Shown here: positions 989-60,131 of the stretch, one piece after another | Position numbering within the stretch: position 1 is the stretch's first letter | Layout of the letters: each line of letters opens with the position of its first letter | Origin: Candidatus Omnitrophota bacterium | GTDB taxonomy: Bacteria; Omnitrophota; Omnitrophia; Omnitrophales; Aquincolibacteriaceae | NCBI GenBank assembly: GCA_903856085.1 | Contig: CAIOAT010000013.1 | Location: forward strand, 103,430-167,429 | Reading direction: 5' to 3' | Length of the DNA stretch: 64,000 nt | Program-made: the position numbers and the translations under genes | Notes under the pieces: model-generated | The model's database searches: none | Told to the model about the DNA's origin: nothing | The model's input: the letters and a program-made list of their open reading frames with translations, nothing else

Positions 989-2137
989 TCAATGAAATGC
1001 TGTTTCAACAACATGGCAACTCGTGCGCCACCACACATCTAATTCTTTCGGAAAATATTTTATCCGCTCTTTTTTGAGTTCCCGGGTCGTTACGAGCACC
1101 TGGTGCGGCCACTTTCCGATACGGTCTTGAATACGCCGGGTCAAGAGATCGAGCGCCGCAGCCGTTTCAGCTCGGACTACCGTGTAAAGTGAATACGGAA
1201 ATTCCGGGTAAGCCGGCCGCCGACCCGCATAAAGAACTTCGCCGAAGTCCGCGATCTCGGGTCCTAGCCGCTCGAGCTTCTCTTCCGGAATTTGCCAAAC
1301 CAGGAGCGTTCGGGTCTCCGTAACAGTCGCGACAGATTTCAGAAAACTTCCGATCTTTTTGAGACAACCTTTCCCGATAAGCGACATCATCCGCTCCAGC
1401 GCCTGAACTTCCGTGATCCCAAGATCCGAAGCGATCTTCCGGTAAGGTTCGTCTGTCAGCGGGAACGGCTCCTGCAACTTCCGGATCATTCCAATCTCTT
1501 CTGCTGAAAGCCCATCTTCGAGCACGGCTTCGCCGGGAGCTTGCAAGCGGCTGGAAATCTCAGAATTTCCACAGCTTGTACTCGTCGCACGAGACGACAA
1601 GCAACGCTTCTCAAAACGCTCGCTCATGGCCGGAAATGTTTCCGCGTCCAAAGAGCTTAAGAGGTCGGTCCCCTTAAATACCTTACGAACGGGTAAAAAC
1701 AATACCCTCTGGGCCCCCGCAAGTTTCCCAAGACACTGGACATGCAATTCAAGATCATACCCCGATGGGACCGCGATAAAAAACCAAAGATTGAACTCGT
1801 GTTCACGCTCACAGCCGTAGACCACCCCCGGATGCTGCCAAAGGACTTCGGTCCGGGACTCAAGCTCTGCCGCATCGGACAGCAAGTGACGCTCCTGTCC
1901 GATCCGCACCGCGACCCAAGCACTTTGATAATGGAACGCGCGCGGATCCAGAATGGCCTTGATCCCTCCGAAGGTCCCTTCCCTTTTGAGACGTTGGATA
2001 CGAACCAGAAGCTCCGCACTGTCTGAGCCGATCTTCGCGGACCAAACATCAAAAGGCCGCGGAGTCAGCGGAAGCCCGTTTTGGAGATAACTCAAAAGAA
2101 GACGATCTTTTTCATCCATAGTCCCAACACCTATCAA
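989..2137 (-). CDS. Fused two-domain Lrp/AsnC-like siroheme decarboxylase-type protein (AhbA/AhbB or NirD/NirL-like).
   Basis: 382-aa ORF with two tandem halves, each with an N-terminal HTH-like segment ([24 protein letters not shown]..., [23 protein letters not shown]...). The conserved NLWF motif ([10 protein letters not shown]) is typical of AhbA/B and NirDLGH. It ends 21 nt upstream of the thiC start. Confidence 0.55.
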
Positions 2138-2175
2138 TTAAAACGAAGTTGAAATTGGGGCAGTCCCCATTCCAA
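2129..2175. repeat. Palindromic repeat family, copy A (degenerate short variant, related to the copy at 44894-44943).
   Basis: CCTATCAATTAAAACGAAGTTGAAATTGGGGCAGTCC. It aligns with copy F, CCTATCGATTTCAACGGAGTTGAAATCGGGGCAATCC, and with the right arm of copy E, GAAATTGGGGCAGTCCTCGTCAACCC. Confidence 0.6.
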
Positions 2176-2359
2176 GCAATCGAAGCAAAGCTGAGATTGG
2201 AGCTGTTTTAAAGGACCCCCGGGAGGCTTGAGAACAATACCTGAAAGCATAATAGCCGAGGGAGCAGGGTTTGTCTATAAAAGGGCGGGAAATGCGTAAC
2301 GCTCCCCGGGGAACGTATTCGTTTGTCGTTCCCCGTTCATCGTCCCCCGTTTATTGGAA

Positions 2360-22682: not shown

Positions 22683-22934
22683 TTAATAATTAAAAAGATC
22701 CCGATGCGCAAACTTTAGTTCGGGAAGTGCGTTATGGATCGCACTCAGAATCTTGGTTTTGGCCCTGGCGGTCAGACGCCTTCCCTTGCGCGCCTTTTGC
22801 ACCACCTTATGGGACAACTGATCGGTCGAAGCCATAACAAGCACATGGTTGGTAAGCCCGTGCTTTGTCATCAGAGTATCAAGCGGCTGCAGTCCGAAAT
22901 CGTTTTCATCTTTCATGTCTGGAGGAACGGTCAT
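22683..22934 (-). CDS. Small basic hypothetical protein (83 aa). The start codon lies inside the terminus of repeat copy B.
   Basis: ORF MTVPPDMKDENDF...KARKGRRLTARAKTKILSAIHNAL. It has no recognisable family. Its ATGACCGT start is supplied by the repeat, so it may be an ORF created by the repeat. Confidence 0.3.
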   Translation of the reverse strand: MTVPPDMKDENDFGLQPLDTLMTKHGLTNHVLVMASTDQLSHKVVQKARKGRRLTARAKTKILSAIHNALPELKFAHRDLFNY

Positions 22935-23020
22935 TGTTTAAAGTCCTGTTGTCATTAAGGTTGACCAGGAACGCCCCAATTTCAACTGCGTGAAATTGAT
23001 GGGTATTGGGACGATCATGT
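22926..23020. repeat. Palindromic repeat family, copy B (long variant).
   Basis: ACGGTCATTGTTTAAAGTCC...AAGGTTGACCAGGAACGCCCCAATTTCAACTGCGTGAAATTGATGGGTATTGGGACGATCATGTCTGAAGC. The CCCAATTTCA/TGAAATTG stem can form a hairpin. Its terminal ACGnTCAT(T)GT motifs are repeated directly. Confidence 0.7.
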
Positions 23021-24028: not shown

Positions 24029-25833
24029 GGTTGAAGTTTTCCCATTTTTCTTTCTAAAGAGCTCCACTCGGCCTCGGCAGCTTCAATCTGGATCTGCAGC
24101 TCCTTTAAGCGCACGTTGCGATCTTTGGAAAAATGGAGCGGGTTCTTCGCTATCTCTTCGAGAACTTTATTCCGTTCTTCGGTAAAATGCCGCGCACGCC
24201 CCTCGGCCTTTTCCATCCCCTTGCGAAGTTTTGAAAGCTCAGCTTTATGCTCATCCTTTTTAGGCTGCTGGACTTCAACATTGAGTCTGGAAGCAGCACT
24301 TTGGGAAGATGCAGACCCGCTATCCTCATCAGTATCTTCTTCCTCCCCTCGAGCCACCTGCTCCAGGTGATAAACATAATCCTCATAACTTCCGGGATAA
24401 TGGAGGATACGGCCTTTCTTCACTTCGAGAATGCTTGAGGCCAGAAGATTGACAAAGGTCCGATCATGGCTGATGAAAACCACAGTGCCGGAGAATGTCT
24501 TGAGCGCGCGCCCCAAAGCTTCCACAGTCTCGAAATCCAGATGGTTCGTCGGCTCGTCCAGAAGCAGGACATGGCTCTTTGAAAGAAGGATTCCCGCCAA
24601 AACGAGTCGCGCCCGCTCGCCGCCACTGAGAACCTTCACCTTCTTTTCGACATCATCCCCTTTAAAAAGAAAGCATCCGGCCATATTAAGCACATCCTGA
24701 CGGGTCACGCCATCCGAGCTCTCGCGCAAAAGATAAGTGTACACATCATCGTCCGGGTCAAGCACCGCAAAGACATGCTGGGCATAATAAGCGACTTTAA
24801 GCCCTGTTCCCCAGCGAAAGCTACCGCCTTTGGACACGAGATCTCCCGCCAGAGTCCTGAGGAATGTCGTCTTTCCTTCACCGTTATTGCCGAGCACCGC
24901 GACATGCTTTCCACGATCGATCTCAACCTGGATGCCGCGCGCAATATCTTTTTCCGGATAACCGATCACAAGATCTTCGCAGGTCACCGCGACCCCCGCT
25001 TTCGGCTCCACAGGTGGGATATGGATCTTGACCGTGCTCATCGGATGCGCGATTTCGATCGTCTTGAGTTTTGAGAGCTGTTTCATCTTTGACTGGGCGC
25101 GCGTCGCCGTGGAGGCCTTGGCCTTAAACCGGTCAATAAAAGTCTGCAGTTGTTCGCGCTTTTTGTCGAGCCCGCGATTGTAGGCCTGCTTTTGCGCGAG
25201 TTGTTCTTCCTTAAACTCGAAATATTCTTCGATATCCCCGGGGAAAAGAGCAAGTCCTCCGTGCTCAACCTCGAGAGTATGGTCGCAAGTCCGCTTCAGA
25301 AACTCCCGGTCGTGGGAAACCACCAGATATCCGCCTCTGAAATTAAGCAGAAAATTCTCCAGCAGGATCAACGTGCTTAGATCCAAATAATTGCTAGGTT
25401 CGTCAAGAATCAGGAAATTGGGATCACCCAGGAGCATCGCCGCAAGCTTCACGCGGGTCTGGAAACCTCCCGGAAGATTCCGCACAGATTCTTCGAGGAT
25501 CTCGTTTTTAAGCTGGAACCGCGCAGCGATCTGCCCGCATTCCCAATGCTCGCTCCGTGTGGTGCGCATCAAGAAATCCACCACCCGCTCGCCGGGCTTG
25601 AAGGTGTCATGCTGTTCGAGATAGGAAAGACGCAGCGCAGCATTACGCGTGATAGTACCGCTGTCGGCCGATTCGTGTCCGGTGATGATGCGGCAAAGCG
25701 TGGATTTCCCGGCACCGTTTCGACCGATCACGCCGATCTTTTGGTCATCACCAAAAGACGCCGTCGCGGCATCCAGGATCGTCACAGCGCCGTAGGCTTT
25801 ATGAAGCTCGTTAACTTGTAAAAGGACGGTCAT
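24025..25833 (-). CDS. ABC-F family ATPase (two ABC domains plus a C-terminal coiled coil; Uup/EttA-like).
   Basis: Two Walker A motifs (GRNGAGKST, GNNGEGKTT), two LSGG signatures and a charged coiled-coil C-terminus. The MTV start codon lies in the terminus of repeat copy C. Confidence 0.85.
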   Translation of the reverse strand: MTVLLQVNELHKAYGAVTILDAATASFGDDQKIGVIGRNGAGKSTLCRIITGHESADSGTITRNAALRLSYLEQHDTFKPGERVVDFLMRTTRSEHWECGQIAARFQLKNEILEESVRNLPGGFQTRVKLAAMLLGDPNFLILDEPSNYLDLSTLILLENFLLNFRGGYLVVSHDREFLKRTCDHTLEVEHGGLALFPGDIEEYFEFKEEQLAQKQAYNRGLDKKREQLQTFIDRFKAKASTATRAQSKMKQLSKLKTIEIAHPMSTVKIHIPPVEPKAGVAVTCEDLVIGYPEKDIARGIQVEIDRGKHVAVLGNNGEGKTTFLRTLAGDLVSKGGSFRWGTGLKVAYYAQHVFAVLDPDDDVYTYLLRESSDGVTRQDVLNMAGCFLFKGDDVEKKVKVLSGGERARLVLAGILLSKSHVLLLDEPTNHLDFETVEALGRALKTFSGTVVFISHDRTFVNLLASSILEVKKGRILHYPGSYEDYVYHLEQVARGEEEDTDEDSGSASSQSAASRLNVEVQQPKKDEHKAELSKLRKGMEKAEGRARHFTEERNKVLEEIAKNPLHFSKDRNVRLKELQIQIEAAEAEWSSLERKMGKLQP

Positions 25834-25940
25834 TGTCTAAAATTCTTTTCTATTACGGTTGGTAATAACCGCCCCAATCTCAGCATTGCTTCGATTGATG
25901 GGTAATGGGACGTTCATTGTTTAAGATTCTATTTTATGGG
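25824..25940. repeat. Palindromic repeat family, copy C (long variant).
   Basis: GGACGGTCATTGTCTAAAATTC...GGTTGGTAATAACCGCCCCAATCTCAGCATTGCTTCGATTGATGGGTAATGGGACGTTCATTGTTTAAGATTC. A direct repeat of ~22 nt sits at both ends. It is nearly identical to copy G inside waaA. Confidence 0.7.
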
Positions 25941-27226: not shown

Positions 27227-27302
27227 GGGTTAACGGTACAATCCAATTCTTAGCAATCTCCGCAAACCGGAAATTGGGGCAGTCCTCGTCAACCCTTCAG
27301 GG
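27227..27302. repeat. Palindromic repeat family, copy E (both arms present).
   Basis: GGGTTAACGGTACAATCCAATTCTTAGC...GGAAATTGGGGCAGTCCTCGTCAACCC. The arms are imperfect reverse complements. Confidence 0.65.
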
Positions 27303-27360
27303 AACAAACTCCAAGACGAGGGCAGCACTGCAAATGCGCAAAATCAATAATAACGCAGCG

Positions 27361-28800
27361 CTAGTACTTGTAGTGCTCGGATTTGTAGGGACCGTCGAAA
27401 GGAACGTCAAGATACTCGGACTGCTTTTTCGTAAGCTTCGTAAGCCGGGCACCCAGTTTGTCCAAATGGAGCCGAGCCACTTCCTCATCGAGCTTCTTCT
27501 CAAGGCGATACACACCGGGCTTCTTGGGATTCATCACCAGATCGATCTGCGCGAGCGTCTGATTCGTAAAAGAATTCGACATCACGAAGCTCGGATGGCC
27601 TGTAGCACAACCCAGGTTCACAAGCCGGCCTTCGGCGAGCAGGATGATCGAGTGTCCATCCGGAAAAACATATTTATCGACTTGCGGCTTGATATTGATC
27701 CGCTTCACGCCCGGCCATTTCTGAAGTTGGACGACCTGGATCTCATTGTCAAAATGTCCGATGTTGCAGACGATGGACTCGTCCTTCATTTTAGACATGT
27801 GTTCGGCGGTAATGACATCGATATTGCCAGTCGTGGTCACGTAAATATCCCCAATATCAAGAACATCCTCGATGCGTGCAACCTGGAAACCGGCCATAGT
27901 CGCTTGAAGCGCGCAAATCGGATCGATTTCCGTCACAATGACGCGAGCCCCAAAACCATGCATGGCCTGAGCACTGCCTTTGCCAACATCCCCGTAACCC
28001 AATACCACGGCGACCTTGCCCGCGATCATCACATCCGTCGCGCGCTTGATGCCATCCGCCAAAGACTCGCGGCAGCCGTAAAGATTGTCGAATTTGGATT
28101 TGGTCACAGAATCGTTCACGTTTATGGCCGGAACCAAAAGTTTCCCCTGTTCCTGCATTTTGTAAAGCCGATGAACGCCGGTCGTCGTTTCCTCGGAAAC
28201 GCCTTCCCATTCTTTGACCACGCCGTGCCATTTCTTAGGCTCATCCTTCATGATCTTTTTGAGAAGTTTGAACAATTCAATCTCATCCTGCGTGTCAACC
28301 TTCTTATCGAGGATCTTGGGGTTCTTCTCCGCATCATAACCCAGATGGATCATGAGCGTTGCATCGCCGCCGTCATCCACGATAAGATTCGGCCCCTTGC
28401 CACCCGGAAAATTGAGCGCTTGAAGCGTGCACCACCAATATTCCTCCAGAGTCTCTCCTTTCCACGCGAAGACCGGAATGCCTTTGACAGCCAAAGCCGC
28501 CGCGGCATGATCTTGGGTGGAGAAAATATTACAGGAACACCAACGGACGTCCGCCCCGAGCTCAATCAAAGTCTCGATCAGAACCGCCGTCTGGATCGTC
28601 ATGTGAAGACTGCCCATGATCCGCTTGCCCTTGAGAGGTTTCTGGGGCCCGTACTTCTTGCGGGTCGCCATTAACCCTGGCATTTCTTTCTCGGCCATAT
28701 CGAGCTCTTTGCGACCCCAATCAGCAAGCGAAAGGTCCGCGACCTTGAAATCGCGTTTCAATTTAAGAGCAGGGACTGTCTTCTGAGCTTTTTTCTTCAT
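27361..28800 (-). CDS. ahcY: Adenosylhomocysteinase.
   Basis: 479 aa. N-terminus [20 protein letters not shown]-binding [10 protein letters not shown] and HFDNEI motifs. Confidence 0.9.
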
Positions 28801-28814
28801 GTTCTAAAATTTCT

Positions 28815-28912
28815 TTCTGTAAGGTTGACCATGCCCGCCCAATTCTCCGCCTTCTTTTGATTCACGGTGAATTGGACGGTCATGCTTACCCGTTGATTTG
28901 GAATTGAATAGT
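28815..28912. repeat. Palindromic repeat family, copy D.
   Basis: AAGGTTGACCATGCCCGCCCAATTCTCCGCCTTCTTTTGATTCACGGTGAATTGGACGGTCATGCTTACC. It lies in the ahcY leader. It also contains an ATGACCGTC-initiated 28-codon frame that ends on the ahcY ATG. Confidence 0.65.
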
Positions 28913-42474: not shown

Positions 42475-42520
42475 TTTAAATTCCTCACGAGGTTTGCCTG
42501 TCCTGACATCTATTTTATTT

Positions 42521-43318
42521 TCATCGAAGATTGCCAGGGCTAGTCCAATTAACCTTCAACTCTTTTGACGGAGAATTGGCCTGTAAACGCTTTTCGACTT
42601 CCTGCAGATCCTCTTCCGTGTCCACGCTGATGAAATCATACGCCGTTTCGATCACGCGAATGGAACGGCCCCTTTCGAGGATCCTGAGCTGCTCTAATTT
42701 CTCGGTATTTTCCAGGATTCCAGGCTCCCAAGCAACAAATTTCAAAAGAAATTCGCGCCGATATCCGTAAACTCCCAGATGTTTCAAAAAACTGAACGCA
42801 CAATTTTGTTTTCCTTGAAAGAACGGGATGGCCGCGCGTGAAAAATAAAGCGCGTTCCCCTCCGCGTCACAAACGATTTTAACAACATTGGGATTCTCAT
42901 AACTTTCCTTGTCCGTCATCCGCACGGCCAGGGTCAGGACTTCCACATCCTTCGCTCGTTCAAAAATGCTCACCATCTCGTCAAGCGCCTTCGGGTCCAC
43001 GAGAGGCTGATCGCCCTGAATATTGATCACCAGTTCCTGTTTGAAACGACCCATGACTTCCGCAATCCTCGAGGTCCCGTTCGGATGGTCTTTGCGCGTC
43101 ATGAAAGCCTTACCACCAAACCCTTCAACGCATTGCTGGATACGCGTGTCGTCGGTGGCTACGATCACATCCTCAAGCTTTTTCGCCTGTCTCGCGCGTT
43201 CCCAAACATGCTGGATCATGGGCTTGCCGCCGATGGAACGCAGGATCTTTTCGGAAAGGCGCGTGGAACCTAAACGTGCGGGGATAACACCGAGGGCTTT
43301 CATATTCTCTAGGCTCAT
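42521..43318 (-). CDS. kdsB: 3-deoxy-manno-octulosonate cytidylyltransferase (CMP-Kdo synthetase). Its C-terminal tail is encoded by a repeat copy.
   Basis: [18 protein letters not shown]-terminus. The C-terminal [17 protein letters not shown] is encoded by repeat copy H2. Confidence 0.85.
42527..42582. repeat. Palindromic repeat family, copy H2 (short variant), overlapping the kdsB 3' end.
   Basis: GATTGCCAGGGCTAGTCCAATTAACCTTCAACTCTTTTGACGGAGAATTGG. It is related to copies at 48655 and 46160, and to copy D. Confidence 0.6.
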
Positions 43319-44851: not shown

Positions 44852-44893
44852 TAAAGGGTCTCTCCTTTGAAGACACGCATTATAGTCCTGATA

Positions 44894-44943
44894 CCTATCG
44901 ATTTCAACGGAGTTGAAATCGGGGCAATCCTTGTCAACCGTTC
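44894..44943. repeat. Palindromic repeat family, copy F (short variant with a perfect GATTTCAACGGAGTTGAAATC palindrome).
   Basis: CCTATCGATTTCAACGGAGTTGAAATCGGGGCAATCCTTGTCAACCG. Confidence 0.65.
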
Positions 44944-44990
44944 AAGAAAAGAATCCGAGACAAGGACAGGGAGAAAAGAAATAATTTCAA

Positions 44991-45794
44991 TCAATTCGCC
45001 GGAGCCTGTCCGGGATCGTAGCCGGCAAGCGTCGCGACGACTTCACCCAGGACGGGAACCTTGACCTTCATCACAAGCGGAATGCGGCGCTCGTCCATAC
45101 TCATCCAACCACGGACTTTTCCGCGCCTGACAAAAAACCCTTCGAACAAAATGATCGGTTCGATCTCAACCGCCTGAAAAACGCCCACAGGGTCGATCTT
45201 CATTTCTTTGACGCCATGCGCAACCACTTCAAGATCCCAGTTTTTTTCGTCCGCGTTCACTGGGATCAGCGTCTTGGAATTCGGCTTCAGATCCTGGAGC
45301 CGGAGCCAGTAGCAGCAGGAGATCTGGTCCTGAACATGCTGAGGAATGAACATTTCTTTTCGACTGTTGTCCTTCCGGGAATAAAAGAGGCCGATATGTT
45401 TGCTCTGATCGTATTCCATCGACTCGTCCGTCCAGTAGCTACCCTCTTTAATCTTTTTTTCATAGCGAAGAGAGTCAAAATGTTCGGCATCGATATAGGT
45501 GTGGTGCGTATCCCGAACCTTGTAGATCCAGTCGAGGATCGGTCGCGACCGGATATTGATCTCGATGTGATAAGCATCGCGGCCGTTCACTTTGACAAGC
45601 TCTTTCACCTCGGAAACTGCTTCCCCCACGGTGATTCCAAGATAACTGACCTCGAATTTTATTTTCTCCCCGAGAAATATTTTTGCGGCAGATTTTTCCG
45701 AAGGCGCAAAAACCCGCCCCTTTTCTTGGGCAGAACTGATGGGAGCAAGAAGTACCAGCGTTAAAAAAAAGAGCGCTGCTTTTTTCATGGGCAT
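44991..45794 (-). CDS. Secreted hypothetical protein with a signal peptide, possibly DUF3108-like.
   Basis: N-terminal signal peptide MPMKKAALFFLTLVLLAPISSA. 267 aa. The family assignment is tentative. Confidence 0.45.
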   Translation of the reverse strand: MPMKKAALFFLTLVLLAPISSAQEKGRVFAPSEKSAAKIFLGEKIKFEVSYLGITVGEAVSEVKELVKVNGRDAYHIEINIRSRPILDWIYKVRDTHHTYIDAEHFDSLRYEKKIKEGSYWTDESMEYDQSKHIGLFYSRKDNSRKEMFIPQHVQDQISCCYWLRLQDLKPNSKTLIPVNADEKNWDLEVVAHGVKEMKIDPVGVFQAVEIEPIILFEGFFVRRGKVRGWMSMDERRIPLVMKVKVPVLGEVVATLAGYDPGQAPAN

Positions 45795-46564
45795 CAGTTC
45801 CGGATAGTCCCGTCAAGGCCGATCACGACCCTCTTAATGGCAAGGCGTGTCCCGGAGAGTTCAACCGCTTCCTGAACCATGCGAAAGAGCCCCGAACAGC
45901 ACGGCACTTCCATGATCACCACGGTAAGTGAATAAATAATGTTATTCTTGAGGAGTTCGGCGATCTTTTCGACATACTCGCCAGTTTCATCCAGCTTGGG
46001 ACAGGCAATGACGAGTCGCCTCCCTTTCAGCATATCCTGATGAAAACTTCCAAGCGTAAAGGCCGTACAGTCCGCTGCGATCAAAAGATCGCACTCCTTG
46101 AAATACGGCGCAACCGGCGAGATCAGATGAAGCTGGATCGGCCATTGGCTGAGCTCGGAGGGCGCGGGACCCGTCCCTTGAACCTTTGATTCTGTGGATG
46201 GAGAATGCGGCTTGATTTCGCGGGCCATGGAACCCGGACAACCGCCAAAATGCGGTGCGTGACCGGTGCCATGGAGTGACGCCACCCCATGAACTTTTTG
46301 CGCAGCCTCAGAACCTTGGGTCTTCAACACGTGATCGAAAGCGGCCTTGGGATCATAGTCGTTGCTGTCTCTTTCGATGATCTTGAGCGCGTCGACAGGA
46401 CAAACATCCAGGCAGGCTCCCATCCCATCACAAAAGATCTCTTTAACGAGCACGGCCTTCTTATGTTCATCCAGCACCAACGCGCCTTCCGCACAGGCCT
46501 TGGTGCAAAGCCCGCACCCATTACATTTTTCACGATCGATCTCAATGATCTTACGTTTTGCCAT
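45794..46564 (-). CDS. 2x[4Fe-4S] ferredoxin-domain protein with an uncharacterised Cys-containing C-terminal domain. It carries an in-frame repeat insertion.
   Basis: CNGCGLCTKACAEGA and CDGMGACLDVCPVDA motifs. The internal HSPSTESKVQGTGPAPSEL segment is encoded by repeat copy H3. Confidence 0.5.
   Translation of the reverse strand: MAKRKIIEIDREKCNGCGLCTKACAEGALVLDEHKKAVLVKEIFCDGMGACLDVCPVDALKIIERDSNDYDPKAAFDHVLKTQGSEAAQKVHGVASLHGTGHAPHFGGCPGSMAREIKPHSPSTESKVQGTGPAPSELSQWPIQLHLISPVAPYFKECDLLIAADCTAFTLGSFHQDMLKGRRLVIACPKLDETGEYVEKIAELLKNNIIYSLTVVIMEVPCCSGLFRMVQEAVELSGTRLAIKRVVIGLDGTIRN
46160..46212. repeat. Palindromic repeat family, copy H3, in frame inside a coding sequence.
   Basis: GGGACCCGTCCCTTGAACCTTTGATTCTGTGGATGGAGAATGCGG aligns to GGCCAGTCCCATTAACCTTTGATTCTTTTGAAAGAGAATGGGA at 48667-48709. 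Confidence 0.55.
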
Positions 46565-48620: not shown

Positions 48621-49723
48621 GTTTTCCTCAGGTCCTGGCATCCATTTTCTTTCCGTAAAAGGTTGCCAGGGCCAGTCCCATTAACCTTTGATTCTTTTGA
48701 AAGAGAATGGGAGAGGATCTTTTCGATCGCCGTCAAAACCTCCTCCGGAGTAATATGCGAAAGCCAGCCTTCGGCCGGAAGGTTCTTACCGAAAAAAGGG
48801 ACCACATAACCTGGGGGAACATATTGTAGTACAAGGCTCTCGCCTCTTCCACGGGGTCCGGTGAGTTTTGGATCGGTAGGACCAAAAAGAGCGATGACTG
48901 GAGCACCGACACCGGAAGCAATATGCATAGGTCCGGAATCGCCACTCACAAGACACGCGGCCTGCTCATAAATAGCCGCCGAAACCCCGAGACTGGTCTT
49001 TCCCACGAACGAGAGAAAACGCGCCTTTTTTACTTTTCCAGAAAAGGCCTCGAAGAGCGCCTCATCTTGCCGCGAGCCTGTCACCACGACAGGCAGGCCT
49101 CGCGTTTCGTGGATTTTGTCGGCGAGCTCCGCAAAATATGCTGGAGGCCAACGCTTCGGCTCCCAATTCGCCCCAAGATGAAAACAAATAAAAGAACCTT
49201 TTTTCTCAAGGCCTTTGTCCTTTAAGAGCCGTAACGCCAGGTCCCGGTCTTCTTTTTTGTAATAAAATGTATACGCCGGAGCTTGAGGGATCTCAAACCC
49301 TGCACGACGCATTAAATCAAGAAAATAGTCCAATTGATGCATTCGCTGGGACGGTTCCGAAATCGCCTGGGTTAAAAAAAACGTTCGCCCCTTGCCGAAT
49401 CCGATCCGTTCCTTGACCCCTGCCAGCATTAAAAGCAAAGCCCGGGTTCTGGAACGGTGGAAAAGATACCCCTGATCCCACGGTCCCTTTTTCCCGAGCT
49501 CGAAAGCGAACTGGATCCTTGGGAAAAGCGGTCGGTGCGTTGTCTTTTCATCGAAAGGCATGAATCCGGAGACCGCAGGATGAGCCTCGAGAATCTCGCG
49601 ACAACGCTCAGGAGCGACGCAAGTGATCGACGCCTCCGGGTATTTTTTTTTGATGAGATCCAGCGCAGGCATCTGGAAAAGCAGGTCCCCGAGCCAATTT
49701 TTCATGACGACAACAATCTTCAT
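48617..49723 (-). CDS. Glycosyltransferase family 9 (heptosyltransferase-like) with a repeat-encoded C-terminal tail.
   Basis: MKIVVVMKNWLGDLLFQMPALDLIKKKYPEA N-terminus. The C-terminal ...SKESKVNGTGPGNLLRKENGCQDLRKT is encoded by repeat copy H1. Confidence 0.75.
   Translation of the reverse strand: MKIVVVMKNWLGDLLFQMPALDLIKKKYPEASITCVAPERCREILEAHPAVSGFMPFDEKTTHRPLFPRIQFAFELGKKGPWDQGYLFHRSRTRALLLMLAGVKERIGFGKGRTFFLTQAISEPSQRMHQLDYFLDLMRRAGFEIPQAPAYTFYYKKEDRDLALRLLKDKGLEKKGSFICFHLGANWEPKRWPPAYFAELADKIHETRGLPVVVTGSRQDEALFEAFSGKVKKARFLSFVGKTSLGVSAAIYEQAACLVSGDSGPMHIASGVGAPVIALFGPTDPKLTGPRGRGESLVLQYVPPGYVVPFFGKNLPAEGWLSHITPEEVLTAIEKILSHSLSKESKVNGTGPGNLLRKENGCQDLRKT
48655..48715. repeat. Palindromic repeat family, copy H1, forming the 3' end of a GT9 gene.
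   Basis: AAGGTTGCCAGGGCCAGTCCCATTAACCTTTGATTCTTTTGAAAGAGAATGGGAGAGG. Confidence 0.6.
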
Positions 49724-51816
49724 AGTGAGAGCGCCCTTTGACAATGTTCAAACACTTCTTCCACAGAAATATGGGTAAGGCAGGCCTTCGTTTCCTTAGC
49801 TTTGCAAACGCCATCGTAACAAGGCTGGCAAGGCAAATGATGCGAGAGCACATCGATCTTTTTCCCGGGCGGGACATGCCGCTTGGCGTCCGTGGGGCCA
49901 AACAAGGCCACGATCGGGACATTCATGGCCGCGGCCATATGAAGCGGCGCCGTGTCCCCTGTCACGACCAGATGAAGCTGTTTGAAAAAAGCCGGCAATT
50001 CCTCCAACGCGGTTTTGCCGATGAGATCGAGGATCTTGCCGGACCCGAAGGAATAGAACGGTCGCCCGAGATCCGCTTCGTCAGAAGACCCGATCAGGAC
50101 GATCCGCGCATCATATTTCTCAAGGAGCCGTTTCGCAAGAGAGACAAAATGTTCCTGAGGCCAACGTTTGCTCGGCCAATTTGGGCTGGATCCCATCACA
50201 AACCCAATGATCCGGGTCGATTCCTTGGGCTCGAGCGTGCCGATCATCTGATTTGCTTTTTCAAGGCTTTCGGATTTTGGCCAGAGTTCCAGCGTGTCAT
50301 CGAATTTAATAACCCCGGCCTTGGACAGCACGCGAAACTGATGGCGAAGAGGCGAATCCCCGACCTCGAAGGTCCTGTCAGGCCGGTTCAGCAAGAATCC
50401 CCATCTTCCGCGTGCAAACCCGAAACGCTGGACCGCCCCACCGAGATAGGCCAGAAGATGTGTCCACTTATTGTTGTGAAGATCGATAGATATATCAAAA
50501 CCTTCGCGGCGAACGCGACGAGCGGTCTTCAAAAGATAAAAAAGATTCGAAAGCTTCTTCCGGTCCACCAGGATCATGTCATCCAGGTAAGGACATGCCG
50601 ACACGATCGGCGCGAGTTTGCGATCCACAAGGAGAGTGATCGAGGCGTCGGGAAAACGTTCCTTGAGCATTCGCAGACTCGGTACGACCAGGATGAGATC
50701 CCCCATCGCCCCGAGCTTGATCACAAGGATTTTCCGGCGTTTACGAACCTCCTGATAGACCTCAAGCGTCTTCCGGACCATTTGCTCCAGGTTGAATTTC
50801 TCCTCCACTTTTTTTCGCAGTTTCACCGCAAACGCCTTGGCCTTATCCCGGTCCGTCAGAAGCTCGTACATCGCCTCAGCCATCGCAGGAATATTCCTCG
50901 GTGGAAAAAGCAAGCCGTTCTCATTATTGTCGATGATGTCTGGCACGCCGCCCAGCCAGGTCGCAGTCACAGGAGTCCCCACAGCACCCGCTTCAATGAT
51001 CACACGACCGAAAGGTTCGGGAATAAGCGAAGACAGCACCAAAAGATCAGACTCGGCCAAAAGTCCCGCCACATCCCGCGTCGGCGGAAGGATCTTGACG
51101 CAACTCTCGAGCCCGAATTGGTGCACGGTTTTTTTCATCAGATCCGTGTAACGGTGTTTGCCGCGCCCCTCGGAACCGACGATCCATACTTCAAAATGGG
51201 AAAGCCGGCTGCGCAACAAATGAATGGCTTTGAGAAATTCCACCTGCCCCTTGGCCGGAGAAAAACGTCCGATATGGATGATCCTCATCGGCCCTGAATG
51301 CTTTTCGAATTTCGCGAACGAGAAAGTAAATTGCGAAAGATCAACGCCGCGCGGAATCAATCGGATGCGATCCGGTGGAACATTGAATTCGTCGATCATT
51401 CTCCGGCCGATCGCGTGAGACGCTACGATCACGCGCTTGCCCCACCCCATCACAAAACTCATCAGATGAACAGAGTAATGTCCGTGACAGGTCGTAATAA
51501 AGGGTATGCCGGTTTTACGGGCCGCAAGCCACCCGAGCCAGGCCGGAACGCGGCTGCGCGCATGAACGATGTCCACGCGCTCCCGCTGGATGATCTTCAC
51601 AAGTTCTTCGACCAGAAATAAACCCGCCAGAGATTTCTGATGCACGGGCAGTCCGTAATGCGGGATTCCGATCTTCTGAAGTTCGGCCACAAGCGACCCG
51701 CCGGATGAGACGACCACCGTCGCGTGCCCTTCCTTTTTCATGGCTCGCGCCAGATCCACCACCCCACGCTCGGTCCCGCCAAGCTCAAGAGCCGGCAAAA
51801 GCTGCATCACCTTCAT
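49720..51816 (-). CDS. Fusion protein: N-terminal GT4 (family-1-fold) glycosyltransferase plus C-terminal GT9 heptosyltransferase-like domain.
   Basis: N-terminal half has the GT4 E-x7-E region (EPFGRVIIEAGAVGTPV). C-terminal half has the GT9 pattern (ILVIKLGAMGDLILVVPSLRMLKERFPDA). 698 aa. Confidence 0.7.
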   Translation of the reverse strand: MKVMQLLPALELGGTERGVVDLARAMKKEGHATVVVSSGGSLVAELQKIGIPHYGLPVHQKSLAGLFLVEELVKIIQRERVDIVHARSRVPAWLGWLAARKTGIPFITTCHGHYSVHLMSFVMGWGKRVIVASHAIGRRMIDEFNVPPDRIRLIPRGVDLSQFTFSFAKFEKHSGPMRIIHIGRFSPAKGQVEFLKAIHLLRSRLSHFEVWIVGSEGRGKHRYTDLMKKTVHQFGLESCVKILPPTRDVAGLLAESDLLVLSSLIPEPFGRVIIEAGAVGTPVTATWLGGVPDIIDNNENGLLFPPRNIPAMAEAMYELLTDRDKAKAFAVKLRKKVEEKFNLEQMVRKTLEVYQEVRKRRKILVIKLGAMGDLILVVPSLRMLKERFPDASITLLVDRKLAPIVSACPYLDDMILVDRKKLSNLFYLLKTARRVRREGFDISIDLHNNKWTHLLAYLGGAVQRFGFARGRWGFLLNRPDRTFEVGDSPLRHQFRVLSKAGVIKFDDTLELWPKSESLEKANQMIGTLEPKESTRIIGFVMGSSPNWPSKRWPQEHFVSLAKRLLEKYDARIVLIGSSDEADLGRPFYSFGSGKILDLIGKTALEELPAFFKQLHLVVTGDTAPLHMAAAMNVPIVALFGPTDAKRHVPPGKKIDVLSHHLPCQPCYDGVCKAKETKACLTHISVEEVFEHCQRALSL

Positions 51817-53762
51817 ATCATGGCTCCCAACCGCTCAGTCAGAGCGTCTTTTTCACGTTGAAGGACTGGCGTTGCCGGTTTCTTAAGAAGTTCAGTCATA
51901 TTTTTTTCCAGATCCGCCAGACCGCTCAAAGTCACAAGTCCGCGTTGAGCAAGGATCTGATGAAAACGGTAATGTTTTTCAGGAAGTTCGCCTTCCCCAA
52001 GGCTCAGAACGATCACACGCTTGCCCGTTCCCACGGCTTCGGAGATCATGGCGAGACTATCCTCCGTCACGATCAGGAGGTCTGCAAGTCCCATCATCCC
52101 CCCGGCTGCGTAAGGCGGATTCTCTTCATTCGCGATCACAAGCAACCGACAGCCAGCCTGCCCGGCAAGATTACTCTTCAAGAAACACTCCACAGGTGCA
52201 GAGGTTCGCCGCGATGTAGTGATCATGAAATCTCCGGCCCGCGAAGCAGCGCGTTTCAAAGTCGAGCAGAGTTTTTCCATGTCTGAGACCATCAGATCAT
52301 AATCACGCGTCGCGCCACCGAGAAACACGGCGATCTTCGGCTTCGTCCCTTCGCCTAGCTTCTCCTGAAGTTGCTGGACGTCCGGACCGCGCTCGTGGGC
52401 CTTGTAACCACTCGGCATGATCACCGAACGCAACGTCCGCTTGGGCACTTGACCGCCGTCATGAGCCGGGACGATCGCAAGATCATAATCTGTCATGCAA
52501 TAAGGAAAAGGCGGATTCATAATGACGATCTTTTTGGCGCCGGTCTCTTGCGCAAGCAGCATCTGCAACGGCGCGAGCCCGGAACCGGCCGCGATAATGA
52601 AATCCGCGTTCGCCTGCTCAATGGCTTTTTGTGTTTCCGGGGTAAAAAAAGGCGCGAGCCAATGAAGCCTCCCCTGGATCCAGGGTTTCATTAGAAATGC
52701 CAGGCAAAACAAGACCGTCCGGTGGAAAGGCGAACGGTATTCAACATAAATCCTTTCCGTTTCAAATTTAAGACCGGCCTGACCGTGGAATTCCTTGAAA
52801 TCCGCGAGTATCTCCGCCACGACCTCCGACTGCTTGAAATGCCCAGCTTTGCCGTCCGAGAGGATCACGATTTTCCTATCCCAACAATATTTCCACCGTT
52901 TATTCTCCCAAAGCCACTGGTTCGGAAATCTCCGGATAAAATCTTCAAGCACCTTCAGATATTGCCGGACCTGAAACTCGATGCGCGCTTGCGGCTCAAG
53001 AGAGGGATCATCCTTCAGAACCTCTCCAGCGTAGACCTCGTGCTCAGGGCCTCCGGTCCTCACGATAAAGAACGGCATAATGAACGCATCCGTACGATGC
53101 GCCAACTGGAAAGCCCCGGTCGGGACCGTGGTCCTCCGACCAAAGAATGGCAGGAGAATCCCTTCGGTCTTACCGGCCGATTGATCACCGAGGACTCCGA
53201 CCATTTGTTTTTCGCGAAGTGCACGGATCAAGGAACGAATGCCCACCCCGCGGCTGATGGAAACCGAGCCGTGACTCTCGCGAAGTTCGTTGATCAATCC
53301 GTTGAGCCTCGGATACCTTTGCTCACGTGTCAACACATGGATCGGTGTACCGCGAAGTCCGGACCAAACCTGCAAAAGCTCCCAATTCCCAAAATGCGCG
53401 GTGATCAGAACCCCGCCATGTCCCGAGCGGAGAAGCTCCTCGTACCGCTCCAGGTTGTGGACCTTGATGTGGAGGTCGTGATGCTTTCGTTCCATCCGCT
53501 TAAAAGACATCACTTCCACAACGGTCTGCCCCAAAAAACCGAAATGATCGCGCACGGCTTTCCATCGCTCCCCCGGAGTCAGCTGACTCCCAAGTGCGGC
53601 CTTGAGATTGATATAGGCAACGCGTCGCTTTTTTGAAACATAGAATACCCCACGCCCCAAACAATCACCGATCTGGAGACTGAGGGCGAACGGAATACGC
53701 GCGAAAAGAAAAATAAGCGCGCGGGCTGCGAGGCAAGCCATCCGGTCGAGCAGATCTTCCAT
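51813..53762 (-). CDS. Fusion protein: LpxL/HtrB-like lipid A acyltransferase domain plus C-terminal ELM1/DUF1022-like domain.
   Basis: The N-terminal ~290 aa are LpxL-family (ITAHFGNWELL, GVLGDQS). The C-terminal ~350 aa contain KIAVFLGGATRDYDL, typical of ELM1-like proteins that recur in LPS clusters. The domain call on the second half is tentative. Confidence 0.55.
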   Translation of the reverse strand: MEDLLDRMACLAARALIFLFARIPFALSLQIGDCLGRGVFYVSKKRRVAYINLKAALGSQLTPGERWKAVRDHFGFLGQTVVEVMSFKRMERKHHDLHIKVHNLERYEELLRSGHGGVLITAHFGNWELLQVWSGLRGTPIHVLTREQRYPRLNGLINELRESHGSVSISRGVGIRSLIRALREKQMVGVLGDQSAGKTEGILLPFFGRRTTVPTGAFQLAHRTDAFIMPFFIVRTGGPEHEVYAGEVLKDDPSLEPQARIEFQVRQYLKVLEDFIRRFPNQWLWENKRWKYCWDRKIVILSDGKAGHFKQSEVVAEILADFKEFHGQAGLKFETERIYVEYRSPFHRTVLFCLAFLMKPWIQGRLHWLAPFFTPETQKAIEQANADFIIAAGSGLAPLQMLLAQETGAKKIVIMNPPFPYCMTDYDLAIVPAHDGGQVPKRTLRSVIMPSGYKAHERGPDVQQLQEKLGEGTKPKIAVFLGGATRDYDLMVSDMEKLCSTLKRAASRAGDFMITTSRRTSAPVECFLKSNLAGQAGCRLLVIANEENPPYAAGGMMGLADLLIVTEDSLAMISEAVGTGKRVIVLSLGEGELPEKHYRFHQILAQRGLVTLSGLADLEKNMTELLKKPATPVLQREKDALTERLGAMI

Positions 53763-54811
53763 TAATTTCTCACTCCCAGTAAACGAAAAAGTCGGTCCGT
53801 GAGGATCTCTTCTCCCGACACGACTCGAAGTCGCGCGGCAAGGACCAGCGGGTTCAGCGTCTCAGTGATCAACTCGCGGGAACGGTAAAAATCCTTTTCC
53901 GTCGTGATGATCTCCTCAGCACCCGCTGATTGCGCGACCTCTTTGATCTTCAGAAGCTCTTCTTTGGTGTATTCATGATGGTCCAGGAATTCGAAGTTCC
54001 GGACGGTCTTGAGTTGAAAACGTTGCAGGACGAGCTGAAAGGATCTTGGGGTCCCCACCGCCGCGAAGGTTGCGACGCGCCGACCGGTCATTTTCTCGAT
54101 CGATGTCCGGACTTTGGTCTTGGCACGATAAAGGAACAACACTTCCATCATGGTCTCGACCATTTGCGCCTGCGGCGCCAGAACCGCGATCTTCTCCTTA
54201 AGCTTCTTGAGTTCCTCGGGGCTTACAAGATTCACATGGGTAAGCACGATAATGGCCGCACGCTTCATGACGGTGAGCGGTTCACGCAAAATACCCCGCG
54301 GAATAAGCTTTCCATTGCCGAAGGGGTTTAGCGAATTGACAACCACGATATCGACATCCCGGTGGAGGGCCTGATGCTGAAGCCCGTCGTCGAGGATGGC
54401 GATATCCACATGCCGTTTCTCGGCCTTGACGCGCTGGGCGACCTTCGCGCGATCCTTGCCGACACCGATGACCGCGGTCGGAAGATGATTCTGAAGTTCC
54501 ACCGCCTCATCATGACTGTAACCACGCGTGAGAACCAATGGCACGCGCCGGTGCATACCGATCTTGCGGGCGAGATATTCTACGAAAGGTGTTTTGCCCG
54601 TGCCTCCCCAGGTGAGATTGCCAACGCTGATGACCGGATAAGGAAGACGTTTGCGTGCCAGCACCTTGTTCTCATAAAGCCAGCGGAATGTCCGGACCCC
54701 GTAGCCGTATCCCCATGCCGCGAAAGAAAGAAGCGCCAAGAGAACTCCGCTCGTCGGGTCATTTTGTTTGTCCTCCGCCAAGAGACGAAAGTAATTCTTC
54801 ATGCTGTCCAT
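53762..54811 (-). CDS. lpxK: Tetraacyldisaccharide 4'-kinase.
   Basis: VISVGNLTWGGTGKTP P-loop. 349 aa. It overlaps the waaA 3' end by ~40-50 nt. Confidence 0.8.
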   Translation of the reverse strand: MDSMKNYFRLLAEDKQNDPTSGVLLALLSFAAWGYGYGVRTFRWLYENKVLARKRLPYPVISVGNLTWGGTGKTPFVEYLARKIGMHRRVPLVLTRGYSHDEAVELQNHLPTAVIGVGKDRAKVAQRVKAEKRHVDIAILDDGLQHQALHRDVDIVVVNSLNPFGNGKLIPRGILREPLTVMKRAAIIVLTHVNLVSPEELKKLKEKIAVLAPQAQMVETMMEVLFLYRAKTKVRTSIEKMTGRRVATFAAVGTPRSFQLVLQRFQLKTVRNFEFLDHHEYTKEELLKIKEVAQSAGAEEIITTEKDFYRSRELITETLNPLVLAARLRVVSGEEILTDRLFRLLGVRN

Positions 54812-56297
54812 TTCTGTTGATCCTTTCTTGAGAATACCGGCCTCGAAGAAACGTCAGAATCCACCCGGCCTGACGCTTGCTGGCACCCCGTAAACGGTTG
54901 ACGATCTGAAAAGCCCTTTGCCCCATTTCATGACGCCTGCTCTCATTAGCGAGGAGCTCCGCCGCCGCGGACGACAGTTCGTCCGGAGCCGAGATCCTGA
55001 GAGCGCCACCGTCATGATCGAGCTGGTGGTAGATCTTGTGAAAGTTAAAAACATGCGACCCATGGAGTATTGCTTTACTAAAACGCGCGGGCTCGATCGG
55101 GTTCTGACCTCCGTGAGGGATCAGACTCCCGCCCATGAACACAAGATCCGCGATCTGGTACAGATTCTTGAGAACACCTAATTGGTCCAGGATCTGCACC
55201 GCAGGCCCTGAACCTTCTTTTTTCCTTGCCCCAACTTTCATCATGTTTTCATGACTGGTCGTTGGGGCTAGCCCAATGAACCTTTCATTATTTTGATGGA
55301 AATTTGGGCTTGTTGATAGAACCACACTAAAACCATATTTCTCCAATTGCTTTAAAAGCCCTTGCGAACGCTCAATGTGACGCGGCGCAAAGATCAGCTT
55401 GAGCGTCGGAAACCGCTCTCGCAACGCTTGAAAAGCAACCATGAGCGTTTCCTCTTCCCCCGGATGCGTGCTTCCCGCGATCCACACAAGATCGTCCGGT
55501 GCATATCCCCAGACCTGCCGCAGGCCGGCCGCATCCGCCCAAACTTTTCCCTTCTTTTCTAAAATAGTATTTTGGACGGCCCCAATCCCCGCTTCGCTTC
55601 GATTGATCGGTATTGGGACCGCCGCGCTGGCATCGGCCCATTCCGCCTGGTCAAACTTCATATTCCCCATGTCCCGAACAGATTCTTCCGCAACACCCAA
55701 TCCCCGGAAACGGCCCGCATCCTCCTCAGACTGAGCGAGCACAAAATCCAGCTTTCCCCAGAGCGGTTTAAAAAGCCACGGAAAAATCTTGTATCTTTTG
55801 AACGAACGCTCCGAAAGACGGGCATTGATCACGCCCACCGGGATATTCCGTTGTTTGGCTTCGGTCAAGAGGTTCGGCCAGATCTCGGTCTCTACGAGCA
55901 GCAAGCAGACCGGCTTAAAAAGATCGAGAAAGCGCTTCACAATCCATGTTAAATCAAACGGAAAATAGCAGACGTGGACCCGTTCCCCCGCGAATTTCTT
56001 CGCGATCCTCTGTCCGGTCGGCGTCACAGTCGTCAGCAGCAATTCATATTCCGGGGCGGAGGCAAGCCATTCCTGCATGAACTTTTCAACGGCCATCACC
56101 TCCCCCACGCTCACAGCATGTAGCCAGATAATTTTCTTGTCGGAAAATTTTCCGGCCCATTCCTTCGGAAAAATCCCTCGGCGTTCCCGCCAAAGCGCGT
56201 CCGGATCTTCAGCTTGGCGGAGTTTGATTAAAAAAATCGGAAGATAAAGAATCCCGAACACCGCGAATGCCAGATTGTATAAGAATGTTCTTATCAT
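54759..56297 (-). CDS. waaA: 3-deoxy-D-manno-octulosonic acid transferase (Kdo transferase) carrying an in-frame ~27-aa repeat-encoded insertion.
   Basis: KdtA conservation: HAVSVGE, LLLTTVTPTG, VWIAGSTHPGEE, FAPRHIER. It is 512 aa against a typical ~425. The segment AAVPIPINRSEAGIGAVQNTILEKKGK between KFD and VWIAGSTH is encoded by repeat copy G. Confidence 0.8.
   Translation of the reverse strand: MIRTFLYNLAFAVFGILYLPIFLIKLRQAEDPDALWRERRGIFPKEWAGKFSDKKIIWLHAVSVGEVMAVEKFMQEWLASAPEYELLLTTVTPTGQRIAKKFAGERVHVCYFPFDLTWIVKRFLDLFKPVCLLLVETEIWPNLLTEAKQRNIPVGVINARLSERSFKRYKIFPWLFKPLWGKLDFVLAQSEEDAGRFRGLGVAEESVRDMGNMKFDQAEWADASAAVPIPINRSEAGIGAVQNTILEKKGKVWADAAGLRQVWGYAPDDLVWIAGSTHPGEEETLMVAFQALRERFPTLKLIFAPRHIERSQGLLKQLEKYGFSVVLSTSPNFHQNNERFIGLAPTTSHENMMKVGARKKEGSGPAVQILDQLGVLKNLYQIADLVFMGGSLIPHGGQNPIEPARFSKAILHGSHVFNFHKIYHQLDHDGGALRISAPDELSSAAAELLANESRRHEMGQRAFQIVNRLRGASKRQAGWILTFLRGRYSQERINRNGQHEELLSSLGGGQTK
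55560..55625. repeat. Palindromic repeat family, copy G (long-variant core), in frame inside waaA.
   Basis: GGACGGCCCCAATCCCCGCTTCGCTTCGATTGATCGGTATTGGGACCGCCGC. Compare intergenic copy C, CCGCCCCAATCTCAGCATTGCTTCGATTGATGGGTAATGGGACG. Confidence 0.65.
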
Positions 56298-59456: not shown

Positions 59457-59618
59457 GTTTATCGGACGCTTGCAACCCGTTTGTTAAAAACGAGTTAGGA
59501 GAATCGCAGAAGCGATTGGTTTTTACCCACCCTCTCTTAGTGCACTGGCGGAAACCCTTACGTCATTCGCTAGAAGCAGTGGACTTCTAAGGGTGACCCT
59601 TGAAAAAATCTCCGCGGC

Positions 59619-60014
59619 TCAAGAGATCTGCTCCCAAGGATCGTCTTTGGGCTTAGCGTTAGCCGAAGGGGTCTTCTTTGAGTTTCCATTGGAAAGCTTA
59701 TAAAGGGACTCGAGCTCCATGATCTGGGAGTCGCGCATCGCTTCTTTTTCAACGCGGCGAACCAAACGCTTGAGCGCCCCGATACGAATGCCAAGTTTCT
59801 CAATACAAAGCGTGGTCAGAAGCCGCGCCAGGATATTCACATGCACCTCAAGGCCCGTCAGACGATCGTCCGCCCGTTCCCCACCCTCTGCGACCTTGCC
59901 CATTTCATTTTTGAGGTCCGCGATCTTCGCATAAAAGGAAAGAACCTCTTTGAGGCTCCCCCCTGTTCTTTTTCCGGAAGGCTTTTGTTTTTTCGAACGT
60001 TTTCGCTTCGCCAT
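59619..60014 (-). CDS. Hypothetical protein with a Lys/Arg-rich N-terminus.
   Basis: 131-aa ORF MAKRKRSKKQKPSGKRTGG... with no recognisable family. Confidence 0.3.
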   Translation of the reverse strand: MAKRKRSKKQKPSGKRTGGSLKEVLSFYAKIADLKNEMGKVAEGGERADDRLTGLEVHVNILARLLTTLCIEKLGIRIGALKRLVRRVEKEAMRDSQIMELESLYKLSNGNSKKTPSANAKPKDDPWEQIS

Positions 60015-60069
60015 AAATCCTACCTCACTTAATAAAGGCTAACACATAAAATCGATCGCGCGGAGAAAT

Positions 60070-60112: not shown

Positions 60113-60131
60113 GACCTAATGACGCCGTCAA

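Follow-up and report, generated by a model that had tools for sequence, protein, structure and literature searches.

Probable copies of a small mobile DNA element lie in frame within the Kdo transferase gene waaA of a Candidatus Omnitrophota bacterium

The Kdo transferase gene waaA lies in a 64-kb stretch of contig CAIOAT010000013.1 from a Candidatus Omnitrophota bacterium (the whole stretch analysed, hereafter the window), within the gene order topA-xerC-waaA-lpxK-lpxL/Elm1-glycosyltransferase, which is kept in every relative fetched. Two segments of its 512-codon reading frame correspond to an 86-nt repeat that is also found between genes, and we consider it very probable that a mobile repeat has been inserted here in frame. 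The assignment of the product to the WaaA/KdtA family (GT30) is based on PF04413 (Glycos_transf_N), recorded for a database protein identical to the window WaaA (P0001), on a GT-B C-terminal domain, and on similarity to the solved WaaA of Aquifex aeolicus (2XCI), which the window WaaA matches in three collinear stretches (E=3.6e-29).

An earlier note on this DNA had proposed that a repeat copy at 55560-55625 sits in frame within waaA and is near-identical to an intergenic repeat at 25861-25910. The relationship itself is well supported, as a 40-nt degenerate pattern derived from both copies finds only those two sites, and none of 100 shuffles reproduces this. The two sequences are 84% identical over 44 nt (55576-55619 versus 25868-25911), so that the likeness is real and "near-identical" overstates it. 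The likeness also continues beyond these 44 nt, over about 86-88 nt, and the full element occupies 55535-55620 rather than the interval first proposed. That note had missed the second copy in waaA, how far the element really extends, and its architecture of two hairpins.

The first copy reads GG TCCCAAT...GTTTGGGC GG and accounts for a net insertion of 84 nt, corresponding to codons 227-254 (VPIPINRSEAGIGAVQNTILEKKGKVWA). DNA alignments with orthologs having an empty site (L002, L003 and L121) show a gap of exactly 84 nt at this position. The second copy, which belongs to a sister sub-family and was also recovered as repeat families D1/D2, likewise adds 84 nt, roughly codons 331-358 (PNFHQNNERFIGLAPTTSHENMMKVGAR), opposite an exact 84-nt gap in L001, L003, L004 and L120. 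The orthologs compared at the DNA level are 84-94% identical to waaA, and four orthologous waaA genes entered the first alignment. The two copies are read in different element frames from about the first hairpin onward, and the reading frame is intact across both inserts, the 512 residues being the sum of 456, 28 and 28. Lengths among 120 WaaA homologs are consistent with this arithmetic: the mode in the clade is 455-457 aa, and further lengths are 484 (about 456+28), 511 (about 456+27+28) and 512 aa (456+28+28). The excess over the clade baseline of 456 aa is therefore 56 aa, contributed by two copies, instead of the roughly 85 aa originally estimated. The in-frame nature of the insertion was borne out by the four orthologs and by an empty-site ortholog 89% identical to P0002.

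The WaaA protein alignment contains three insertion hot-spots, at which the DNA inserts measure exactly 81, 84 and 84 nt. Site 0, just after NMKFD, is occupied in P0005, P0008, P0056 and P0061, and doubly in P0057. Site 1 (copy 1) is occupied in the window WaaA, P0002, P0005 and P0020, a distribution that makes this insert lineage-specific, a point that the earlier note had proposed to check. Site 2 (copy 2) is occupied in the window WaaA, P0003, P0004 and P0006, and in-frame remnants of 5-14 aa are present at this site in P0012, P0038, P0047 and P0049. Closely related pairs isolate single inserts: the genes for P0004 and P0013 are 93.8% identical in DNA and their sole internal difference is 84 nt at site 2 (P0013 has 18 extra nt at the 5' end), and P0002 differs from the empty-site P0011 (89% identical) by exactly 84 nt at site 1. 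The site 1 insert is absent from most orthologs of 75-86% protein identity, and all three inserts are absent from every more distant Omnitrophota WaaA examined and from Aquifex WaaA. Between orthologs the inserts are 82-92% identical, the rest of the gene being 84-85% identical; since they are as diverged as the rest of waaA, the inserts are old and have been carried and tolerated for a long time. In a neighbour-joining tree of the insert-free WaaA core, occupied and empty genes are interleaved, and this patchy distribution requires repeated exact loss, allele replacement or repeated gain. As for the length of a target-site duplication, repeats of 2-5 nt are all compatible with the three waaA sites, where the DNA adjacent to the inserts is hypervariable.

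The 81-nt insert at site 0 of P0005 (L004, 5062-5142) was missed by the family profile. A CATCGGC/GCCGATG hairpin comes first and a GTCCCAAAC...GTTTGGGGC hairpin second, so that this insert looks like the same modules in reversed order.

Within the window, MAFFT aligned ten segments of about 90 nt as one family, and a search with a profile built from window copies detected 12 element copies with E-values from 1e-20 to 1e-6, among them 55620-55533 (E=2.7e-16) and 25915-25826 (E=1.6e-19). The coordinates of these copies and of the genes concerned are collected in Table 1.

Table 1. Element copies, their hairpins and the waaA-lpxK genes in the 64-kb window.
Feature	Coordinates	Strand	Remarks
waaA (Kdo transferase, GT30)	54759..56297	-	512 aa; list of open reading frames
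lpxK	53762..54811		overlapped at its start by waaA
Element copy 1 in waaA	55535..55620	-	86 nt; nhmmer E=4.5e-16
Hairpin 1 of copy 1	55581..55610	-	columns 11-40 of alignment A3; covariation
Hairpin 2 of copy 1	55535..55579	-	CCGUCCAAAA...GUUUGGGCGG stem, A-rich loop; helix 3 covariation, fold
Element copy 2 in waaA (sub-family 2)	55225..55310	-	86 nt; nhmmer E=2.6e-13
Intergenic copy	25827..25913	-	upstream of ABC-F ATPase gene; 26-codon mini-frame (25837..25917)
Intergenic copy	22926..23013	-	between rho and 83-aa open reading frame
Intergenic copy	28797..28879	-	between metK and ahcY
Intergenic copy	27243..27323	+	antisense to flanking genes
Intergenic copy	44883..44970	+	perfect 10-bp hairpin 1
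Copy forming KdsB C-terminal tail	42497..42583	-	
Copy forming heptosyltransferase C-terminal tail	48628..48712	-	
Decayed copy within 4Fe-4S protein	46137..46213	-	open reading frame 45794..46564
Half copy and full copy in tandem	2120..2244	+	hairpin-1-only half copy first; intergenic, antisense to flanking genes

Several of these copies have particular relationships with neighboring genes. The three copies upstream of the ABC-F gene, between rho and the 83-aa frame, and between metK and ahcY each start directly after ATGAnCG and end in a stop codon 3-5 nt before the downstream ATG (ABC-F, the 83-aa frame and ahcY, respectively), creating mini-frames of 26-28 codons. In two of the three, the sequence of the hairpin 2 3' arm is ATGACCG, by which the displaced start codon seems to be restored. 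The ABC-F site is also occupied in L102. The last 20-35 or so codons of kdsB and of the heptosyltransferase gene, together with their stop codons, come from the copies listed in Table 1, and L001 and L003 are without a copy at the corresponding heptosyltransferase position. The decayed copy in the 4Fe-4S protein follows the ferredoxin domain (residues 6-61) and precedes the C-terminal part. The arrangement of a half copy followed by a full copy recurs in L065, L032 and L110.

The unit of the family measures 86 nt and is made up of two stem-loops, one after the other, each of about 43 nt. In hairpin 1, GTCCCAAT...ATTGGGGC encloses a variable 10-bp stem, and hairpin 2 has a variable 9-11-bp stem with a 25-nt A-rich loop. 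In an alignment of 74 diverse element copies (A3), compensatory changes are found in 9 of the 10 pairs of helix 2 (a 10-bp stem with a GAA-type loop), in 10 of the 11 pairs of helix 3 (an 11-bp stem with the A-rich loop, 92% paired), and in 19 of 23 pairs overall. The cells of this alignment are paired in 91.6% of cases versus 77.0% when shuffled, a value that none of 500 shuffles reached, and versus 29-49% when the partners are slid. The invariant 5' GTCCCAAT is able to pair alternatively with ATTGGGGC, which yields the two hairpins of about 43 nt; this pairing is formed in 94% of cases and is mostly invariant, with column 1 covarying with column 43, and it corresponds to the minimum-energy fold of both waaA copies. 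In the minimum-energy fold of copy 1, the 5' GGUCCCAAU pairs instead with AUUGGGGCC. The predicted RNA folds have energies of -26.5 kcal/mol for copy 1 (z=-2.15) and -35.8 kcal/mol for copy 2 (z=-6.4). On the modelled strand G-U pairs outnumber A-C mismatches (69 versus 27), and this strand is therefore taken as the folding strand.

The element has no terminal inverted repeats, since its 3' end pairs internally, with columns 42-52; across sub-families there is no complementarity between the end TCCCAAT... and the end ...GGRYNG. When boundaries are anchored on the structure, 80 of 117 copies are 86 nt long, and in 80 of 117 the trinucleotide at positions -1 to 2 equals the last three bases, compared with 26 expected from permutation (maximum 40). 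The 5' trinucleotides preceding TCCCAAT are TAG (46 of the 117 copies), CGG (36), CAG (13) and CCG (8). The same trinucleotide, Y-N-G, bounds the element on both sides as a direct repeat, and integration therefore adds exactly 84 nt, or 28 codons. Each of the two flanking trinucleotides is complementary to the C-N-G that separates the hairpins. In 95% of copies position -1 is paired with column 44 (72% permuted), and in 47% column 1 is paired with column 43 (23% permuted). Pairing between flank and interior is not above chance beyond position -1, and a longer guide was rejected. The left flank matches the 3' end of the element at 3.0 of 8 bases versus 2.37 +- 0.09 when permuted, which is compatible with a guide without being specific to one. 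The Y-N-G repeat may be a recognition motif rather than a target-site duplication, since both of its copies pair with the internal C-N-G. Several copies are nested in the 3' arm of hairpin 1 of another copy (...GC/GG/TCCC...GGAC/GG/AAATTGGGG), in one nested case with TG on both sides, and tandem copies share terminal bases. The ends, the flanks, and the nested and tandem copies together demonstrate mobility and a short recognition or duplication motif, without identifying the enzyme.

An exact-pattern scan covered one genome per species from 185,579 species and found at least 114 stretches. Among the 80 matches listed, all are Omnitrophota/Omnitrophica metagenome-assembled genomes (MAGs) or bins named "uncultured bacterium", and no genome carries the name of a different phylum. 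The profile, run over the window and 925 kb of related loci (pieces of about 20 genomes), gave 205 hits, of which 159 are full length. Intergenic copies occur in both orientations. Of the full copies, 32 lie in the sense orientation within open frames of at least 200 codons, a count that required an open frame and would miss interrupted genes; six lie antisense in open frames, at least two of them probably upstream of the real start. Sense copies within genes use all three element frames (14, 14 and 4 copies) and encode unrelated peptides (VPIPINRSEAEIGAV..., GPNTNQSKQSGDWGRPNYH..., SQYRSIEAKLKLGQS...), and this is therefore a nucleotide-level element and not a protein module. Stop-free sense frames are commoner than in shuffled sequences (0.31-0.62 versus 0.18). 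Hosts confirmed by Pfam include aspartate-semialdehyde dehydrogenase (Asd), a Nuo antiporter-like subunit, a histidine kinase, an ATP-synthase-family ATPase, UvrA (three copies), PriA, valyl-tRNA synthetase (ValRS) and an iron alcohol dehydrogenase (Fe-ADH). The repeat is found both between genes and, with the frame preserved, within unrelated protein genes, as are the palindromic elements of Rickettsia; the earlier comparison with those elements thus proved apt.

A peptide module had been considered on account of a recurring VPIPINRSxAEIGAV, and was ruled out because further copies have this DNA in different frames or contain stop codons. The three UvrA copies lie in frame in a single gene (L096, 1761-5081), and a giant protein of more than 2666 codons (L008, 1-7998) contains two in-frame copies.

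In order to place the inserts in the WaaA protein, we used an AlphaFold2 (AF2) model built with a 26-sequence alignment. It comprises two confidently modelled alpha/beta domains, with a mean predicted local distance difference test score (pLDDT) of 78.8, a predicted template modelling score of 0.74, 226 residues at pLDDT 90 or above, and a core mostly above 85. Values below 50 are confined to residues 220-254 and 331-362, which are the two inserts and a few flanking residues, and, elsewhere, to the C-terminal residues 497-499 and 501-512. Alignment with 2XCI gives 58 WaaA residues against 16 in Aquifex from the last strand of the N-terminal domain to the first strand of the C-terminal domain, and 42 against 10 between two elements of the C-terminal domain. 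Copy 1 is thereby positioned between the N- and C-terminal Rossmann-like domains, and copy 2 in a loop of the C-terminal domain; the loop position of the first insert, which the earlier note had proposed to check, agrees with the model, in which residues 220-254 are predicted with low confidence. The conserved WaaA motifs are all intact and the inserts lie away from them. In the model both inserts are surface-loop excursions compatible with the fold, and each is probably a disordered excursion of 28 residues. Because the frame is intact and the inserts have persisted for long, we infer that they are translated and that WaaA is still active.

We conclude, with a probability of roughly 0.85, that the waaA segment is one copy of a small mobile DNA element that is non-autonomous and specific to a clade within Candidatus Omnitrophota. 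A full-text search of the literature on Omnitrophota/Omnitrophica repeats or MITEs (miniature transposable elements with inverted repeats) returned no description of it, and the family is apparently undescribed, although as selfish DNA resembling the Rickettsia elements it is of a kind already known. Copies landing in tolerant parts of genes would survive as in-frame insertions and be translated, in-frame survival being favored because the added length is divisible by three and stop codons are scarce in the sequence. One copy would have landed in the interdomain linker of WaaA and a second in the C-terminal domain loop, with the enzyme tolerating both. As a best guess, an enzyme recognising hairpins folded from single strands may mobilise the element in trans, and this enzyme might pick the trinucleotide for cleavage or targeting through pairing with the central C-N-G between the hairpins. 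The hairpins at the ends, the absence of inverted repeats, the flanking motif paired with a putative guide and the seamless presence/absence point tentatively to the logic of IS200/IS605 or REP-associated tyrosine (RAYT) HUH transposases.

Several observations weigh against this interpretation. The orientation of copies relative to neighboring genes is only weakly biased (34 versus 23), with 127 of 184 cases mixed because of spurious long open reading frames (ORFs) on both strands. The WaaA tree is poorly resolved, so that repeated loss, allele replacement and repeated gain are not distinguishable. Pfam scans of 30 window ORFs revealed no transposase; tblastn of an approximate IS200 TnpA against the 925 kb of related fragments gave no Y1 transposase (nothing at E<0.5); and none of the partial profile hits belonged to a longer, autonomous element sharing these ends. 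The flank repeat is likewise consistent with a DDE transposase that duplicates 2-3 bp of target, or with a serine or DEDD recombinase whose crossover spans 2 bp, and a recombinase with a 2-3-bp crossover is possible. Partial hits considered as candidates for an autonomous parent turned out to be complete copies with a divergent second hairpin, or tandem half copies.

The hairpins could instead be a functional RNA element (an mRNA stabiliser, a processing site, or a site of translational pausing or coupling) that is kept in waaA, mobility being secondary. Such a role would accord with the strong covariation, with the excess of G-U over A-C on the sense strand, with the three window copies between an upstream ATG and the next start codon that end in a stop 3-5 nt before it, and with the persistence of the inserts over about 15% DNA divergence. 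We nevertheless regard it as improbable. No Rfam family matched in the whole window at the gathering threshold, and at E<=10 across waaA there were only chance-level microRNA and small nucleolar RNA matches. Moreover, copies occur in both orientations relative to genes, their positions in proteins are unrelated, close relatives without the inserts show no other change, and nested and tandem copies resemble transposition rather than placement for a function.

It is much less likely still that the element is present in the DNA and missing from the mature protein, either cut out of the mRNA or skipped over by the ribosome. Ribosomal bypassing of mobile inserts is known from yeast mitochondria, and the waaA inserts fold stably as RNA, copy 2 in particular with its z of -6.4. 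Against this, all intragenic copies detected keep the host frame open (a requirement of the detection), the three waaA-site inserts are all multiples of three in length (84, 84 and 81 nt), which would be unnecessary if they were skipped, and decayed inserts survive as in-frame remnants of 5-14 aa.

An ancestral or independently evolved WaaA loop, whose likeness to intergenic DNA is incidental or was copied outward from the gene, is very hard to sustain. In its favor, the divergence between orthologous inserts is about that of the remaining gene, and the scatter of insert-bearing orthologs on the tree could mean ancient presence followed by many losses. The absence of the inserts from all the more distant Omnitrophota WaaA examined and from Aquifex WaaA argues otherwise, as do the occurrence of the same element in unrelated genes and intergenic DNA in three reading frames and the fact that base pairs, not residues, are the conserved features. 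Finally, short-read metagenome assemblies can collapse or misjoin repeats, and the earlier note had asked for a mis-assembly to be excluded, but an artefact is negligible here, as the same 1539-nt gene is found with zero differences in three other assemblies from different samples (those with DNA available), the identical protein is encoded on at least 16 contigs, orthologous inserts in other MAGs carry their own substitutions, and both inserts measure exactly 84 nt and keep the frame.

The element can be compared with several known systems, and its behavior matches that of the Rickettsia palindromic elements (RPE). As described in PMC10969869, RPE (Ogata et al. 2000 Science) are repeats found in frame in many unrelated genes; they share with the Omnitrophota element a short, hairpin-forming, non-autonomous nature, occurrence both between genes and in frame in unrelated housekeeping genes, and translation (presumed in our case) as extra peptide segments at positions compatible with the fold, and for neither does that account or our data name a mobilising enzyme. 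On the same account RPE belong to Alphaproteobacteria, measure about 100-150 nt and form one long palindrome, whereas the Omnitrophota element is 86 nt long, has two consecutive hairpins and uses all three frames.

The behavior also agrees with that of repetitive extragenic palindromic (REP) sequences tagged by GTAG/CGTC, which in Opitutus terrae and R. conorii have been reported within genes, uvrA among them (PMC3733652). Like the Omnitrophota element they are stem-loops with a conserved unpaired or terminal tag, are sometimes intragenic, and are thought to act as single-stranded hairpins (PMC3733652); the 5' NGTC of the element resembles the REP CGTC tag, except that its first base is G or A more often than C. 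REPs are single hairpins of 20-40 nt with loops of 4-5 nt, usually in inverted dimers (PMC3733652), whereas the Omnitrophota unit has 86 nt, two direct hairpins and a 25-nt loop, and we therefore rejected classification as a REP. MITEs (Correia/NEMIS, ERIC, Nezha) are similarly small, abundant and non-autonomous, and occasionally lie inside genes with open frames, but are defined by terminal inverted repeats and target-site duplication by a DDE transposase (PMC10969869, PMC2759123); a MITE was rejected for lack of such inverted repeats.

The mini-elements of IS200/IS605, palindrome-associated transposable elements (PATE), carry hairpins at both ends and lack inverted repeats (PMC5934647, PMC5027513, PMC10055086), and IS608 recognises its target by base pairing and is excised precisely as a single strand (PMC5934647, PMC5027513). 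The Omnitrophota element has the subterminal hairpins at both ends, the lack of inverted repeats and the strand-specific structure of PATE, as well as a flanking motif, repeated at the right end, that pairs with internal sequence at the hairpin foot, and seamless presence/absence. It differs in that its putative guide is only 3 nt long, and in that searches of the window and the sampled fragments turned up neither a Y1 transposase nor an autonomous parent. That it represents a new class of hairpin-guided single-strand transposons adapted to coding sequence seems unlikely to us, although the fixed net size of 84 nt, the stop-poor frames and target choice by a 3-nt guide would speak for it. If it were so, its spread would regularly have supplied essential proteins with new surface loops throughout a clade of Omnitrophota, and the patchwork of occupied and empty sites would be explained by seamless loss.

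Reports of in-frame selfish DNA in protein genes come mainly from Rickettsia, apart from scattered REP and ERIC cases elsewhere, and the same behavior is now seen on a comparable scale in an uncultured phylum that is free-living or episymbiotic. About one fifth of the sampled copies lie within genes, such as those for UvrA, PriA, ValRS, Asd and WaaA (two copies), so that the family constitutes a natural experiment on the tolerance of essential enzymes to loop insertions. Annotation of Omnitrophota MAGs should expect inserts of 28 residues, gene tails and spurious mini-ORFs derived from the element. The covarying two-hairpin architecture and the paired flanking trinucleotide make the mechanism of mobilisation directly testable.

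Some features of the surrounding locus were also observed. The 53-nt overlap of waaA and lpxK (54759-54811) is the same in all relatives, and the conserved C-terminal tail of WaaA (...NGQHEELLSSLGGGQTK) is encoded across the start of lpxK. Two fusion genes on the minus strand are kept in all relatives: one of 649 aa (51813..53762) joins a lipid A acyltransferase to an Elm1/DUF1022-like domain, and one of 698 aa (49720..51816) joins a GT4 glycosyltransferase domain to a GT9 heptosyltransferase domain. Upstream of topA, relatives have a DUF7544 gene of about 400 aa between an RDD-family gene and a 131-aa ORF, which the window strain is without (window 59456-60132 compared with L002 4919-6127 and L003 4896-6137).

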